Below, one piece after another: positions 11,000 through 47,902 of a DNA stretch of 64,000 bases (position 1 is its first letter; each line of letters opens with the position of its first letter). Under the pieces are notes generated by a model. It had not been told where the DNA came from. It made no database searches and was given only the letters and a program-made list of their open reading frames with translations. Source of the stretch: Escherichia coli (GTDB lineage: Bacteria; Pseudomonadota; Gammaproteobacteria; Enterobacterales; Enterobacteriaceae); NCBI RefSeq assembly GCF_002854065.1, contig NZ_CP024147.1; one strand, given 5' to 3'. Both the position numbers and the translations under genes were made by a program.

Positions 11000-12307
11000 A
11001 TGAAACGTGTTTCTCAAATGACCGCGCTGGCAATGGCTTTAGGGCTGGCTTGCGCTTCTTCGTGGGCCGCTGAACTGGCGAAGCCTCTTACACTTGACCA
11101 GCTTCAACAACAAAATGGCAAAGCGATAGATACTCGCCCCAGCGCGTTTTATAACGGCTGGCCACAAACCTTAAATGGCCCTTCTGGTCATGAACCTGCC
11201 GCCTTAAACCTCTCTGCTAGCTGGCTTGACAAAATGAGCACCGAACAGCTCAACGCGTGGATCAAGCAACATAACCTGAGAGCCGATGCCCCGGTGGCGC
11301 TGTACGGTAATGGCAAAGATGTCGACGCCGTCAAAACGCGACTGCAAAAAGCAGGTTTTACGCATATCTCCATTCTGAGTGACGCGCTAAGCGAACCTTC
11401 CCGTCTGCAAAAACTGCCGCATTTTGAGCAGCTGGTTTATCCGCAATGGCTGCATGACCTGCAACAAGGTAAAGAGGTTACGGCGAAACCTGCCGGTGAC
11501 TGGAAAGTCATTGAAGCGGCCTGGGGCACTCCTAAGCTTTACCTTATCAGCCATATTCCCGGCGCTGACTACATCGATACCAACGAAGTGGAAAGCGAAC
11601 CGCTGTGGAACAAAGTTTCTGATGAACAACTAAAAGCGATGCTGGCAAAACACGGCATTCGCCATGACACCACGGTCATTCTGTACGGGCGTGACGTATA
11701 CGCTGCAGCGCGTGTGGCGCAGATTATGCTGTATGCAGGCGTGAAAGATGTGCGCCTGCTGGATGGCGGCTGGCAAACCTGGTCCGACGCGGGTCTGCCC
11801 GTTGAGCGCGGTACGCCACCGAAAGTGAAAGCGGAACCGGATTTCGGCGTGAAGATCCCGGCGCAACCGCAGTTGATGCTCGATATGGAACAGGCCCGTG
11901 GACTGCTGCATCGCCAGGATGCATCGCTGGTGAGCATTCGTTCGTGGCCAGAATTTATCGGTACGACCAGCGGTTACAGCTATATTAAACCAAAAGGTGA
12001 AATAGCCGGAGCACGTTGGGGACACGCTGGTAGCGACTCGACGCATATGGAAGATTTCCATAACCCGGATGGCACCATGCGTAGCGCCGATGATATTACC
12101 GCTATGTGGAAAGCATGGAATATCAAACCAGATCAGCAAGTTTCATTCTACTGCGGCACCGGCTGGCGCGCGTCCGAAACCTTTATGTACGCACGAGCAA
12201 TGGGCTGGAATAACGTCTCCGTTTACGACGGCGGCTGGTACGAATGGAGCAGCGATCCAAAAAATCCGGTAGCAACCGGTGAACGCGGCCCGGACAGCAG
12301 CAAATAA
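11000..12307 (+). CDS. ynjE: periplasmic sulfurtransferase with rhodanese domains (435 aa)
   Basis: ORF 10985..12307; signal peptide; rhodanese-type active-site Cys (FYCGTGWRAS). Confidence 0.8.
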   Translation: MKRVSQMTALAMALGLACASSWAAELAKPLTLDQLQQQNGKAIDTRPSAFYNGWPQTLNGPSGHEPAALNLSASWLDKMSTEQLNAWIKQHNLRADAPVALYGNGKDVDAVKTRLQKAGFTHISILSDALSEPSRLQKLPHFEQLVYPQWLHDLQQGKEVTAKPAGDWKVIEAAWGTPKLYLISHIPGADYIDTNEVESEPLWNKVSDEQLKAMLAKHGIRHDTTVILYGRDVYAAARVAQIMLYAGVKDVRLLDGGWQTWSDAGLPVERGTPPKVKAEPDFGVKIPAQPQLMLDMEQARGLLHRQDASLVSIRSWPEFIGTTSGYSYIKPKGEIAGARWGHAGSDSTHMEDFHNPDGTMRSADDITAMWKAWNIKPDQQVSFYCGTGWRASETFMYARAMGWNNVSVYDGGWYEWSSDPKNPVATGERGPDSSK

Positions 12308-12315
12308 CATTGCAA

Positions 12316-12942
12316 TTACTGACGCTGGAGCGACTTCAGCGTCAGATACCCACTCCACACCCGCGTAAAGGTCGTCATCCAGCACAACGCACCGAAGATC
12401 CACGCAAACCACGCAAACCATGCAGGGAATAAACATCCCAGCACAAACAGTAAGATCGTTTCTGTGCCTTCGGTTAATCCCCCCAGATAATAAAACGATT
12501 TATGCGCATAACCGGGATTATCAATCTGATGTTTCGCCGCCAGCGCAGCAAAAGCGAGAAAACTGCTACCCGTGCCGATAAACGCAAATAGCAGCCAGCC
12601 GCCTGCCAGGGCGTTTTGCTGCGGTGCGGCGAGGATAAACCCAAAAGGCACCAGCGCGTAAAAAAGAAAATCGAGAGAAATATCAAGAAAGCCGCCCGCG
12701 TCGGTAAGCCCTCTGCGCCGCGCCAGCGCACCGTCCAGACCATCAAGCAGCCTGTTCAACAAAATGACGACTAGCGCCGCCAGATACCAGCCCAGCGCCA
12801 GAAACGGCAGAGCCAGCACGCCGATGGCAAATCCCACTAATGTTAAACCATCTGGCGTAATGCCCGGTTTATCAAGAACCCGCACGCACTGATGCAACAA
12901 CGGTTTAATCCGGGGATGAAGATGGCGGTCTAGCACAGGCAC
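12316..12942 (-). CDS. ynjF: CDP-alcohol phosphatidyltransferase family membrane protein (208 aa)
   Basis: ORF track 12316..12942; D-G-x2-A-R...G motif (DGLDGALARRRG). Confidence 0.75.
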   Translation of the reverse strand: MPVLDRHLHPRIKPLLHQCVRVLDKPGITPDGLTLVGFAIGVLALPFLALGWYLAALVVILLNRLLDGLDGALARRRGLTDAGGFLDISLDFLFYALVPFGFILAAPQQNALAGGWLLFAFIGTGSSFLAFAALAAKHQIDNPGYAHKSFYYLGGLTEGTETILLFVLGCLFPAWFAWFAWIFGALCWMTTFTRVWSGYLTLKSLQRQ

Positions 12943-13022
12943 TCCTTAAATATAAAGCCTTTCTGATTGAGCAACAGTGCGGATATTATGGCATTTTTCG
13001 CTTATCTGCCCGTGTGTAATTT

Positions 13023-13430
13023 ATGAAAATGATTGAAGTTGTTGCCGCCATCATTGAACGTGATGGCAAAATTTTACTCGCGCAACGCCCCGCCCAGAGC
13101 GATCAGGCGGGATTATGGGAGTTTGCCGGTGGTAAAGTCGAGCTGGATGAAAGCCAGCAGCAGGCGCTGGTGCGTGAGTTAAACGAAGAATTGGGCATCG
13201 AAGCAACTGTGGGTGAGTATGTTGCCAGCCATCAGCGAGAAGTTTCGGGCCGGATTATCCATCTTCATGCCTGGCACGTACCCGACTTCCACGGGACGTT
13301 ACAGGCACATGAACATCAGGCGCTGGTCTGGTGCTCACCTGAAGAGGCGCTGCAATATCCGCTGGCCCCTGCTGACATTCCATTATTAGAGGCGTTTATG
13401 GCTTTACGCGCCGCCAGACCAGCGGATTAG
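13023..13430 (+). CDS. nudG: Nudix hydrolase, CTP/dCTP pyrophosphohydrolase (135 aa)
   Basis: Nudix box GGKVELDESQQQALVRELNEELGI. Confidence 0.85.
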   Translation: MKMIEVVAAIIERDGKILLAQRPAQSDQAGLWEFAGGKVELDESQQQALVRELNEELGIEATVGEYVASHQREVSGRIIHLHAWHVPDFHGTLQAHEHQALVWCSPEEALQYPLAPADIPLLEAFMALRAARPAD

Positions 13431-13668
13431 TGCTAAGGGTTTTGTCATCCCGCTGGCATTGCAGCAGTATTCCCTCGGCTTTAATTACCGCGCCTTCAGA
13501 ATAATTTTTATCCTGATAAACGCAGCACTGAGTACAGGGCTGCGCTGATTGCCCGCCTGAACTGAACACTTCTGGCGGTACGTTTACCTCCACGTCCGGA
13601 CGATAATGCGGGTTAGCCAGTGCAATTAATGGAAATGCTAATACTACGGCGAACAATGCTCGACTCAC
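13396..13668 (-). CDS. ynjH: small secreted protein, DUF1496 family (90 aa)
   Basis: ORF track; signal peptide MSRALFAVVLAFPLIALA; 3' end overlaps nudG 3' end by 35 nt. Confidence 0.7.
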   Translation of the reverse strand: MSRALFAVVLAFPLIALANPHYRPDVEVNVPPEVFSSGGQSAQPCTQCCVYQDKNYSEGAVIKAEGILLQCQRDDKTLSTNPLVWRRVKP

Positions 13669-13903
13669 AGGGAACTCCTTAACGTTATTGTCTCTGCTAC
13701 TGATAACGGTAGCCGGGTGGCAAAACTTTAGCGTCTGAGTTATCGCATTTGGTTATGAGATTACTCTCGTTATTAATTTGCTTTCCTGGGTCATTTTTTT
13801 CTTGCTTACCGTCACATTCTTGATGGTATAGTCGAAAACTGCAAAAGCACATGACATAAACAACATAAGCGCAATCATATTAATATATAAGGGTTTTATA
13901 TCT

Positions 13904-15247
13904 ATGGATCAGACATATTCTCTGGAGTCATTCCTCAACCATGTCCAAAAGCGCGACCCGAATCAAACCGAGTTCGCGCAAGCCGTTCGTGAAGTAATGA
14001 CCACACTCTGGCCTTTTCTTGAACAAAATCCAAAATATCGCCAGATGTCATTACTGGAGCGTCTGGTTGAACCGGAGCGCGTGATCCAGTTTCGCGTGGT
14101 ATGGGTTGATGATCGCAATCAGGTACAGGTCAACCGTGCATGGCGTGTGCAGTTCAGCTCTGCCATCGGCCCGTACAAAGGCGGTATGCGCTTCCATCCG
14201 TCAGTTAACCTCTCCATTCTCAAATTCCTCGGCTTCGAGCAAACCTTTAAAAATGCCCTGACTACCCTGCCGATGGGCGGTGGTAAAGGCGGCAGCGATT
14301 TCGATCCGAAAGGAAAAAGCGAAGGTGAAGTGATGCGTTTTTGCCAGGCGCTGATGACTGAACTGTATCGCCACCTGGGCGCGGATACCGACGTTCCGGC
14401 AGGTGATATCGGGGTTGGTGGTCGTGAAGTCGGCTTTATGGCGGGGATGATGAAAAAGCTCTCCAACAATACCGCCTGCGTCTTCACCGGTAAGGGCCTT
14501 TCATTTGGCGGTAGTCTTATTCGCCCGGAAGCTACCGGCTACGGTCTGGTTTATTTCACAGAAGCAATGCTAAAACGCCACGGTATGGGTTTTGAAGGGA
14601 TGCGCGTTTCCGTTTCTGGCTCCGGCAACGTCGCCCAGTACGCTATCGAAAAAGCGATGGAATTTGGTGCTCGTGTGATCACTGCGTCAGACTCCAGCGG
14701 CACTGTAGTTGATGAAAGCGGATTCACGAAAGAGAAACTGGCACGTCTTATCGAAATCAAAGCCAGCCGCGATGGTCGAGTGGCAGATTACGCCAAAGAA
14801 TTTGGTCTGGTCTATCTCGAAGGCCAACAGCCGTGGTCTGTACCGGTTGATATCGCCCTGCCTTGCGCTACCCAGAACGAACTGGATGTTGACGCCGCGC
14901 ATCAGCTTATCGCCAATGGCGTTAAAGCCGTCGCCGAAGGGGCAAATATGCCGACCACCATCGAAGCGACTGAACTGTTCCAGCAGGCAGGCGTACTGTT
15001 TGCACCGGGTAAAGCGGCTAATGCTGGCGGTGTAGCAACGTCAGGCCTGGAAATGGCACAAAACGCTGCGCGCCTGGGCTGGAAAGCCGAGAAAGTTGAC
15101 GCACGTTTGCATCACATCATGCTGGATATCCACCATGCCTGTGTTGAGCATGGTGGTGAAGGTGAGCAAACAAACTACGTGCAGGGCGCGAACATTGCCG
15201 GTTTTGTGAAGGTTGCCGATGCGATGCTGGCGCAGGGTGTGATTTAA
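13904..15247 (+). CDS. gdhA: NADP-specific glutamate dehydrogenase (447 aa)
   Basis: MDQTYSLESFLNHVQKRDPNQTEFAQAVREV...; GGGKGG motif; full-length match. Confidence 0.95.
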   Translation: MDQTYSLESFLNHVQKRDPNQTEFAQAVREVMTTLWPFLEQNPKYRQMSLLERLVEPERVIQFRVVWVDDRNQVQVNRAWRVQFSSAIGPYKGGMRFHPSVNLSILKFLGFEQTFKNALTTLPMGGGKGGSDFDPKGKSEGEVMRFCQALMTELYRHLGADTDVPAGDIGVGGREVGFMAGMMKKLSNNTACVFTGKGLSFGGSLIRPEATGYGLVYFTEAMLKRHGMGFEGMRVSVSGSGNVAQYAIEKAMEFGARVITASDSSGTVVDESGFTKEKLARLIEIKASRDGRVADYAKEFGLVYLEGQQPWSVPVDIALPCATQNELDVDAAHQLIANGVKAVAEGANMPTTIEATELFQQAGVLFAPGKAANAGGVATSGLEMAQNAARLGWKAEKVDARLHHIMLDIHHACVEHGGEGEQTNYVQGANIAGFVKVADAMLAQGVI

Positions 15248-15249
15248 GT

Positions 15250-15352
15250 TGTAAATGCCTGATGGCGCTACGCTTATCAGGCCTACAAATGGGCACAATT
15301 CATTGCAGTTACGCTCTAATGTAGGCCGGGCAAGCGCAGCGCCCCCGGCAAA
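15250..15352. repeat. REP/BIME-type palindromic repeats downstream of gdhA
   Basis: GCCTGATGGCGCTACGCTTATCAGGCCTACA followed by inverted TGTAGGCCGGGCAAGCGCAGCGCCCCCGGCA; typical REP pair. Confidence 0.6.
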
Positions 15353-15363
15353 ATTTCAGGCGT

Positions 15364-16402
15364 TTATGAGTATTTAACGGATGATGCTCCCCAGGGAACA
15401 TTTCTTATGGGCCAACGGCATTTCTTACTGTAGTGCTCCCAAAACTGCTTGTCGTAACGATAACACGCTTCAAGTTCAGCATCCGTTAACTTTCTGCGAT
15501 AGCAGCAGATATGCCAGTAAAGAAATCCCATTAGACTATTTTTTTGATAATCTTCTTCGCTTTCGAACAACTCGTGCGCCTTTCGAGAAGCAAGCATTAT
15601 ATAATGCCAGGCCAGTTCTTCTTCAATTGTCCCGTTTTGAAAAGCTGTGCTTGATATCGAGATCATCCATGATAATTCCGCCGCCCATATTAGCTTCGCC
15701 GAGGATTTACCGGAGCTATGATTAGCGCAATCAGAGATATAGTCTGAGGGAAAACAGCAAATTTATTCAACAAGGCGATAACCTGCTCTGGGGCTTCCTC
15801 CATGTTTGCTTTAAAGGTATTGGCTCCATGGTCGCCAGAAAGAAAATGCTCCATTAAGGCACAATAACTTTCGCTATCTTCGATACCCCATTGATCCTCT
15901 AAAGACTCGCGTCTTTTACTTATGATATCGATCGAGTCAAAAGGAAGCACATGATATTGGAAGGTATCTTTGCCAGGTTCAGGCTTTCGCGGCCAGAACT
16001 CCAGCGTTTCAGACCATTGCTTATGATAGAATCGATAAGGTGCGATCAATTGTAGCGCCTGTAATTTCTCGATACTGAGCGGCTCAATACCTTTAGCCTG
16101 ATAATAATGCAGCTGTTCTTTTTTTGCTTTAAAACCGGCCCGAACAATAAGCCCCATCATAATTAATAGATAAAGAAAAGAGCATCCCGCGGTAATCAGG
16201 CCTCTTTCATTCAAACCTTTGGATGTTATCGCTGCGAATACAAACATTACAGCGACAACACATGTTAAATACCCCCCCACTTACAAAGCAGCATGGCCTT
16301 ATTTTCTTTAATCATCCGTTCAAAATTACTATTAAATATTTCCCAGCCATTAAAAGAATACTTCTCGCTCCCAGGATGGTTTTGTAATAAAACTTTTTTC
16401 AT
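15364..16402 (-). pseudogene. ynjI: ynjI-like inner membrane protein gene split across three reading frames (apparent pseudogene)
   Basis: Three abutting ORFs in three frames (16402..16265, 16280..15690, 15666..15364); span from MKKVLLQNHPGSEKY start to final stop is 1039 nt, two short of a 346-codon frame; first break at a C7 homopolymer (16272-16278). Confidence 0.55.
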
Positions 16403-46677: not shown

Positions 46678-47124
46678 ATGTTTGATGTCACTTTGCTGAT
46701 CCTGCTCGGGTTAGCTGCGCTGGGCTTTATCAGTCATAACACCACTGTCGCCGTTTCAATTCTGGTGTTGATTATTGTCCGCGTCACACCGTTAAGCACC
46801 TTTTTCCCGTGGATTGAAAAACAGGGGCTAAGTATCGGGATAATCATTCTGACGATTGGCGTTATGGCCCCCATCGCCAGCGGGACGCTACCGCCCTCAA
46901 CCCTGATTCACTCGTTTCTGAACTGGAAATCGCTGGTGGCAATTGCAGTAGGCGTTATTGTCTCCTGGCTGGGGGGGCGCGGCGTGACGTTAATGGGCAG
47001 CCAGCCGCAACTGGTCGCCGGGCTGCTGGTGGGCACTGTTTTAGGCGTGGCGCTGTTTCGCGGCGTACCGGTTGGCCCGCTTATTGCCGCGGGTCTGGTT
47101 TCGCTGATTGTGGGGAAGCAGTAG
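46678..47124 (+). CDS. yeaL: UPF0756-family inner membrane protein (148 aa)
   Basis: ORF track; four hydrophobic helices. Confidence 0.8.
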
Positions 47125-47902
47125 TTAATCCCGCAATATATCGGCCTGGCGTTTGCCCCAGGCCTTTCTTAAACATAGTAATAAAGGCTGTTGTTGAATC
47201 ATACCCCAGCGTATGAGCAACTTTCTGTACAGTATCGCCTTTCACTAATCCCTGAAGCGCCATAATCAGCTGTAACTGCTGACGCCACTGGCGAAAACTC
47301 AACCCCGTCTCTTTTACTATCAGTCGGGCAAGATTGCGTTCACTCATCGCAAAAAAGCCAGCCCATTGCCCCAATGAGCCCCACTCGACGGGCTCTTTCG
47401 CCATCATCTCCACCATCGTGCGGATTTTAGGATGAGAAGAAACGGGCAAGTGCAGCTGTTGTTGTGGCTGCTGAGGGAGTTCATCAAACAGGACCTGAAT
47501 TAATCTGCAGGTCATCGGCTCAGCACGCTGAGTCGTCGTCCTGTTTGCCAGGGTTAAAATCAATTCCCGGCATAAGGGCGATATTTTCAATGTGCAACAT
47601 GTTGTCGGCATTGTCACTGCGCTGGGTTCGATAAACAGAAAACAGAGTTCAGCGTTAGCTGTCACTTGATTGCTATGCTTCACCCCGCCCGGTATCCAAA
47701 CCGCATATTGTGGCGGCACCATCCACAAAGCATTTTCCACCGTACAGGTAATTGCACCATGTAATGCTAGTATCAGCTGTCCTTTGCGGTGCTGATGTAC
47801 AGGACTGGTTAACTCATCCGTTCCGGCGTGAATACAAAATGCGACCGCGGCTTCATGGTGTCGGTCGGGTTCATAGCCATTGAGATTCAACCTGTGCATC
47901 AT
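47081..47902 (-). CDS. yeaM: AraC-family transcriptional regulator (273 aa)
   Basis: Cupin-like N-terminal domain plus C-terminal AraC HTH; 3' end overlaps yeaL 3' end by 44 nt. Confidence 0.8.

Follow-up and report, generated by a model that had tools for sequence, protein, structure and literature searches.

In the window analyzed here, a 64,000-nucleotide stretch of Escherichia coli DNA (contig NZ_CP024147.1), nudG occupies positions 13023..13430 on the plus strand and encodes a 135-aa protein, with a TAG stop codon at 13428-13430. The ynjH gene lies on the minus strand at 13396..13668 and encodes a 90-aa protein that starts from a GTG codon at 13668 and ends with a TAA codon read at 13398-13396. 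Both genes are found in the ORF list and in RefSeq and are matched by Pfam profiles, and nudG is also matched by NCBIfam and PDB entries. The sequence-only reading that preceded this work had claimed that the last 35 nt of nudG are also the last 35 nt of ynjH, and the ORF list and the sequence bear this out: the two genes overlap tail to tail by exactly 35 nt, at 13396..13430, on both strands. The shared stretch encodes NudG residues 125 (in part) to 135, (F)MALRAARPAD*, in one direction and YnjH residues 80 (in part) to 90, (T)NPLVWRRVKP*, in the other. Being on opposite strands and sharing their 3' nucleotides, nudG and ynjH form a convergent overlapping coding pair.

According to the annotation and profile matches, NudG is a CTP/pyrimidine (d)NTP pyrophosphohydrolase of the Nudix family. 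The Pfam NUDIX profile covers its residues 4-125 and ends where the overlap begins, whereas the NCBIfam equivalog PRK10546 (pyrimidine (d)NTP diphosphatase) covers residues 1-135; the PDB entry 2RRK, “CTP pyrophosphohydrolase,” which was solved on the full 135-residue sequence, matches NudG with an E value of 9.5e-85. An AlphaFold2 model of NudG, based on 42 orthologues, has a mean pLDDT of 92.8 and a terminal helix at residues 116-131; confidence is low for the last four or five residues (mean pLDDT of 58 for residues 131-135). YnjH, listed in RefSeq as “YnjH family protein,” looks like a secreted DUF1496 protein with no assigned function. The Pfam DUF1496 profile matches residues 33-89 of 90 over all 53 profile positions (E = 1.7e-24) and extends to the penultimate residue, and the C terminus of YnjH is the best-conserved part of the family. 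That the NUDIX profile ends at the start of the overlap and DUF1496 reaches the end of YnjH is the first sign that the two partners in the overlap are unequal. Both ORFs are real protein-coding genes, as indicated by the profile matches, the 2RRK structure, the codon-position periodicity outside the overlap, and a published display of Ribo-seq data.

The nudG/ynjH overlap is already known, having been both annotated and published. The 2018 paper on GWIPS-viz used the “overlapping genes nudG and ynjH” as a figure example, with strand-specific Ribo-seq and mRNA-seq data for the pair displayed in its Figure 1 (PMC5753223). ExcludonFinder (NAR 2025) placed nudG-ynjH among 165 convergent overlapping transcription units of strain MG1655, a core set that is present in at least 50% of 58 MG1655 transcriptomes and that also contains the neighboring ynjE-ynjF pair (PMC12288877). 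In one comparative study, E. coli had 663 overlapping adjacent gene pairs, 75 of them convergent (PMC4161906).

Tight convergent junctions are common in the window. As annotated in strain 100416, this region has ten native convergent junctions, with spacers of 53, 57, 21, -44, 0, 50, 92, 116, -35, and 8 nt. Two of the ten overlap and five leave 21 nt or less, so that there is no room for a terminator hairpin at these five. The second convergent overlap of coding regions, longer than that of nudG and ynjH but similar in size (44 nt versus 35 nt), is formed by yeaL (46678..47124, plus strand) and nimR (47081..47902, minus strand), which share positions 47081..47124 (coordinates taken from the window itself, not via strain 100416); yeaL-nimR likewise appears in the published list of excludons (PMC12288877). 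A length of 35 nt probably exceeds what is typical of convergent overlaps.

The 1051-nt stretch around the overlap is 100% identical to the corresponding sequence of strain 100416 and has matches in 5423 of the 5426 complete E. coli genomes, and the 95-nt nudG/ynjH junction is found, at a coverage of at least 80%, in 5413 of them. The identical two coding regions with the 35-nt overlap are present in the RefSeq/PGAP annotation of seven of the eight E. coli genomes that were fetched, among them a K-12 derivative, a strain of the O157 lineage, and the most divergent matches. Thus, with these seven annotations and the 61 Enterobacteriaceae loci described below, the overlap is a feature of related genomes and not a strain-specific mutation or error. 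In the eighth genome, that of strain F829 (NZ_OY754443.1; locus L004, 3497..4969), ynjH is broken by an IS5-family insertion, ISKpn26, located 4-5 nt past the nudG stop codon. In this strain, nudG is intact and ynjH is split, and a new ORF annotated as “hypothetical protein” again overlaps nudG by 35 nt; F829 therefore represents a natural ynjH knockout with the NudG tail preserved.

The junction across Enterobacterales

Scanning one genome per species with NudG yielded 80 loci, and in 77 of these, distributed across Enterobacterales, ynjH is convergent to nudG. The nudG stop codon of each locus was recomputed from the gene's own start before the length of the junction was measured. All 61 loci of the Enterobacteriaceae type (Escherichia, Citrobacter, Salmonella, Kosakonia, Kluyvera, Buttiauxella, Enterobacter, and others) have an overlap of 23-44 nt, which is 35 nt long in 20 loci, 41 nt in 31, 38 nt in 3, 44 nt in 3, 26 nt in 3, and 23 nt in 1. 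In Serratia, Yersinia, and Erwinia, 4 loci have an overlap of 8-12 nt and 12 have a gap of 4-100 nt. Conservation of the overlap, which the sequence-only reading had offered as the way to refute or uphold it, therefore holds within Enterobacteriaceae, where no other true stop codon removes it, and the claim made for E. coli is not overturned; it does not extend to Serratia, Yersinia, and Erwinia, and the length varies.

The comparison of species shows where this variation comes from: the ynjH stop codon is fixed and the nudG stop codon shifts. Whether the overlap measures 35 or 41 nt, which is the commonest difference, is decided solely by the wobble base at ynjH Thr80: ACT reads as TAG on the nudG strand, and ACC, ACG, or ACA abolish this stop codon, adding two residues to NudG. 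In the three loci without ynjH downstream, NudG still ends 5-7 variable residues past the conserved PLL-x-x-[FY] motif. The NudG tail is thus, in every lineage, a short and loosely constrained appendage, which in Enterobacteriaceae is encoded opposite ynjH by happenstance.

In Serratia sp. H1w, a 100-nt insert (locus L073, 2947..3048) separates nudG from ynjH. The insert carries long inverted repeats rich in G and C, GGAGAGGGG...CCCCTCTCC, and has the look of a small repeat element. The NudG frame continues into the sequence around the insert, and the resulting tail is about 15 residues longer than those encoded in the other Serratia loci.

Coding constraints within the overlap

The codon phase of the overlap is the most conflicting one possible, with the ynjH wobble position falling on nudG position 2 and the nudG wobble position falling on ynjH position 2. 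Among 60 species, mean nucleotide entropy inside the overlap is 0.874 at ynjH wobble/nudG position 2 and 0.16 at nudG wobble/ynjH position 2. In the 30 nt upstream of the overlap, it is 1.53 at nudG position 3 and 0.04 at nudG position 2. Normal nudG periodicity thus persists up to the overlap, and from about 13396-13401 onward the variation follows the ynjH frame instead. Among the protein sequences, positions -3 to -11 of YnjH are nearly invariant, with column entropies of 0.0-0.67, and positions +2 to +10 of the NudG tail have column entropies mostly of 0.95-1.73. Since the variation falls at the ynjH wobble position, which is nudG position 2, the sequence is dictated by ynjH and the greater part of the NudG tail conforms to it, and every synonymous change in ynjH alters the NudG tail.

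In Enterobacteriaceae, the conserved cores of NudG and YnjH abut at 13396-13401, and the last 9-10 codons of nudG run antisense to the conserved C terminus of YnjH (TNPLVWRRVKP) until a stop codon happens to occur. Synonymous changes in ynjH, such as Thr80 ACT versus ACC, ACG, or ACA, make or remove nudG stop codons and in this way generate overlaps of 23 to 44 nt. As a baseline for chance, YnjH was recoded with random synonymous codons and the position of the stop codon in the nudG frame was recorded. About 50% of the recoded sequences had this stop at an overlap of 11 nt and about 18-23% had it at 35-41 nt, whereas in the other 27-32% the frame stayed open to 89 nt or more. An overlap of 35 nt is no more than expected by chance.

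The proximal end of the overlap shows signs of a second constraint. This part, at 13396..13416 (an approximate limit) on both strands, includes NudG residues F125 and M126 and the final stretch of the predicted helix, as far as residue 131 or so, as well as the ynjH stop codon and YnjH residues 85-90. YnjH Val88 is encoded by GTA in 42 species and by GTG in the other 18. GTT and GTC, either of which would place a stop codon (TAA or TGA) in the nudG frame at 11 nt of overlap, occur in 0 of 60 species, although these species are related and do not amount to 60 independent trials. At Val84, the other valine of the YnjH tail, all four codons are in use. The ynjH stop codon in the overlap is TAA in 59 of the 60 species and TGA in one, but never TAG, which would convert NudG F125 to Ser; TAG does occur in Yersinia, where F125 is not overlapped. 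Finally, position 13399 is T in 59 of the 60 species despite the variable last residue of YnjH, and this T preserves M/I126 of NudG. Codons that would end NudG two residues past F125, or would replace F125 or M126, do not occur, which points to a weak second constraint near the start of the overlap. NudG would need about 5-7 further residues to complete its terminal helix, and the last residues (RPAD) would be free to vary.

The distal part, at 13417..13430 on both strands, follows ynjH only, and the nudG stop codon varies there, at overlaps of 23, 26, 35, 38, 41, and 44 nt. The overall picture is suggestive of a first segment of about 20 nt constrained by both genes and a last segment of about 14 nt constrained by ynjH alone. 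Just outside the overlap, the ynjH wobble position has an entropy of 1.15, and inside it the value falls somewhat, to 0.87, so that the NudG tail, or some feature at the RNA level, may constrain the overlap more than is credited here.

Transcript ends and termination

The sequence-only reading also held that the overlap leaves no intergenic space for a terminator and that each mRNA must extend into the coding region of the other gene. Both statements agree with the data: there is no intergenic space, and a consensus scan of 12800..14000 on both strands found no intrinsic-terminator-like sites (0 versus 1.3 expected in shuffled sequences). Because each stop codon lies inside the partner coding region, each mRNA covers at least 35 nt of the partner, in accord with published RNA-seq data (PMC12288877). 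No Rfam match was found in 11000..16000 at an E value of ≤1. Among six segments folded on both strands, five were unremarkable, with z scores between -0.67 and +0.66 relative to shuffled sequences; the sixth, a minus-strand hairpin at 13410-13465, had a z score of -2.4, with 5 of 200 shuffled sequences folding equally well. Bidirectional intrinsic terminators serve the same setting, a convergent junction at which both transcripts must end, but consist of a G+C-rich hairpin flanked by A-/U-tracts; the nudG/ynjH junction has neither such an element, with a short loop and a U-tract on both strands, nor the intergenic space for it. Searchable supplements (among ExcludonFinder, SMRT-Cappable-seq, Adams et al. 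2021, and Dar & Sorek 2018) contained no mapped 3' ends for nudG or ynjH.

With no terminator hairpin, each RNA polymerase would be expected to transcribe into the partner gene. The RNA past each stop codon is antisense to the partner coding region and untranslated, and such RNA is a standard substrate of Rho. The ribosome would leave at the stop codon, and the untranslated antisense RNA would then be terminated by Rho. Judging from base composition, Rho-dependent termination inside the partner gene would be the likeliest way in which the two transcripts end. For ynjH, Rho would use a C-rich stretch of RNA antisense to the Nudix box. This candidate loading (rut-like) region, at 13098..13255 on the minus strand, is C rich and G poor, lies antisense to the Nudix-box coding region, and begins 140 nt and ends 300 nt past the ynjH stop codon. 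Read in the direction of ynjH (13255->13098), it has 33-41% C and 15-19% G, and its C/G ratio peaks at 2.58 in a 78-nt window, which ranks in the top 0.3% of all windows of that size when both strands of the 64 kb are counted. The ynjH transcript therefore has downstream of its stop codon what a Rho-dependent terminator calls for, a C-rich, G-poor RNA of about 80 nt that is untranslated in the ynjH frame. The read-through RNA of nudG is only mildly C rich (C/G of 1.25-1.57 at 13431-13550); with this weaker signal, the 3' end of nudG would be less predictable than that of ynjH and could reach the gdhA leader.

The C-richness of this antisense strand is probably a side effect of the Nudix motif, which is rich in Gly and Glu, and because of it the antisense RNAs of Nudix genes could generally be good substrates for Rho. 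The surrounding genes alternate in strand, in the order ynjE(+), ynjF(-), nudG(+), ynjH(-), gdhA(+), which means that read-through from ynjH would enter ynjF in the sense orientation and read-through from nudG would enter gdhA in the sense orientation. The ynjE (+) and ynjF (-, 12316..12942) genes also converge, with an 8-nt spacer at 12308..12315 that again leaves no room for a terminator.

The candidate ynjH promoter

The ynjH gene belongs to the FliA (sigma-28) regulon as one of its conserved members, and deleting it caused no defect in motility (PMC4183435; bioRxiv 10.1101/2020.09.09.289983). A candidate sigma-28 promoter is located at 13703..13730 on the minus strand, about 35 nt upstream of the GTG start codon. 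The motif TAAAGTTT-N12-ACCGTTAT (13730->13703) is the best match to the consensus in the ynjH orientation. It is found at the same distance from the gene in the Escherichia, Citrobacter, and Salmonella loci, and other genera have related GCCGATAT/GTCGATAG variants. With ynjH driven by sigma-28, overlapping transcription antisense to nudG should peak in motile cells, and overlapping transcription of the pair is probably strongest there.

The FliA motif printed for ynjH in PMC4183435, TAACGTTATTGTCTCTGCTACTGATAAC, maps to the plus strand at 13680-13707 and points to gdhA, not to ynjH. This motif occurs only in close Escherichia relatives. It shares the same -10 DNA with the ynjH-oriented TAAAGTTT-N12-ACCGTTAT, in the opposite orientation.

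Interpretation of the overlap

We consider it highly probable that the nudG/ynjH junction is a convergent overlap of an ordinary kind, between two real genes and old in evolutionary terms. It resembles the convergent overlaps that arise by stop codon movement (PMC4161906), in which, as here, real genes on opposite strands share their 3' ends and the length of the overlap shifts through the gain or loss of one stop codon. Nothing essential sets nudG/ynjH apart from other bacterial convergent overlapping pairs. The excludon concept of Sesto et al. applies to overlapping convergent transcription units, and nudG-ynjH has been named as such in the MG1655 “excludome” (PMC12288877); however, classical excludons combine long antisense overlaps with demonstrated mutually exclusive expression, whereas nudG/ynjH is documented by coverage overlap alone. 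It is nevertheless conceivable, if unlikely, that selection has made the junction into a regulatory device, a functional excludon in which FliA-driven ynjH antisense RNA lowers NudG, or the reverse, as polymerases collide and RNase III cleaves the 3' ends where they pair. Such a device would couple motility to a Nudix enzyme that hydrolyzes CTP, damaged pyrimidine nucleotides, and (p)ppGpp, and NudG is described as a (p)ppGpp-metabolizing enzyme in PMC5845004. Also in favor are the call of nudG-ynjH as a convergent excludon in at least half of the 58 transcriptomes, the retention of the terminator-less convergent order in 77 of 80 species loci across Enterobacterales, and the conditional transcription of ynjH from a conserved candidate sigma-28 promoter. 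However, what ExcludonFinder scores is shared RNA-seq coverage and not reciprocal regulation, and where coding regions overlap such a call is almost a matter of course. The tightness of the junction alone is no sign of selection, since half of the convergent junctions in the window are equally tight, and the length of the overlap is not conserved, ranging from a 100-nt gap to a 44-nt overlap, with sequence change tracking the coding needs of ynjH. The FliA study discusses ynjH among FliA-dependent genes, but nudG is absent from its main text (PMC4183435). A one-way version, in which read-through from ynjH, fired by FliA, covers nudG and reduces NudG in motile cells as a sigma-28-controlled antisense switch, seems more improbable still; if true, it would mean a changed turnover of CTP, oxidized pyrimidine nucleotides, or (p)ppGpp in the motile phase.

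Two further explanations carry far less weight. The hairpin at 13410-13465 on the minus strand was considered as a cryptic structured element, a bidirectional terminator or a 3'-end-protecting hairpin, that would define both 3' ends with minimal read-through. It is formed by the inverted repeat CCAGCGG (13419-13425)/CCGCTGG (13452-13458), and its folding score is the one outlier noted above, but the loop is 24 nt long, no U-tract is present on either strand, the site is not terminator-like and has no Rfam match, and the plus strand of the same segment is unremarkable (z = -0.5). In 61 distinct sequences, the pairs are broken by one-sided wobble changes with almost no compensatory ones, base pair 16/41 being formed in only 8 of the 61, and the persistence of both arms is explained by the conserved coding sequence. 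We rejected the hairpin as a conserved RNA element and regard this explanation as very improbable. That the overlap is an annotation artifact, with one of the frames not translated to its annotated end, we discount almost completely. The poor conservation of NudG beyond residue 126 and the predicted disorder of its last residues would agree with this, but the end of an ORF is its first in-frame stop codon, independent of the gene caller, and both stop codons were read directly from the sequence. Moreover, the structure 2RRK was solved on NudG of full length, the C terminus of YnjH is the part of the family that is conserved best, the junction recurs in 5413 genomes, and codons that would truncate NudG are avoided; the artifact was therefore set aside.

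What the comparison of species contributes, beyond an ordinary overlap, is the fixed end of ynjH, the wandering stop codon of nudG, and a short segment under constraint from both genes. As a clean natural case of unequal partners in an antisense overlap, the pair is useful for teaching. It also calls for caution in engineering either gene: NudG is changed when the 3' end of ynjH receives a silent edit, a deletion, or a tag, and vice versa. Since changes at the 3' end of ynjH alter NudG, the published ynjH knockout used in the motility tests may have affected nudG as well.

Additional observations

Some assembly labels in the species set are likely to reflect contamination or mislabeling. The metagenome-assembled genome “Citrobacter sp. 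HRGM_Genome_0066” contains two nudG loci (L006 and L013), whose products are 96% (E. coli-like) and 81% (Citrobacter-like) identical to the query NudG, and “Chryseobacterium sp. 18061” (L036) has a typical enterobacterial nudG/ynjH locus.

When coordinates are mapped via strain 100416, they are shifted by about 776 nt at later positions of the window, a difference that arises somewhere between 13950 and 46678. The window thus derives from a strain other than 100416. That strain has an IS1 in ynjI, a DUF1266 gene, and an IS421 in yeaR, one of which the window may lack.
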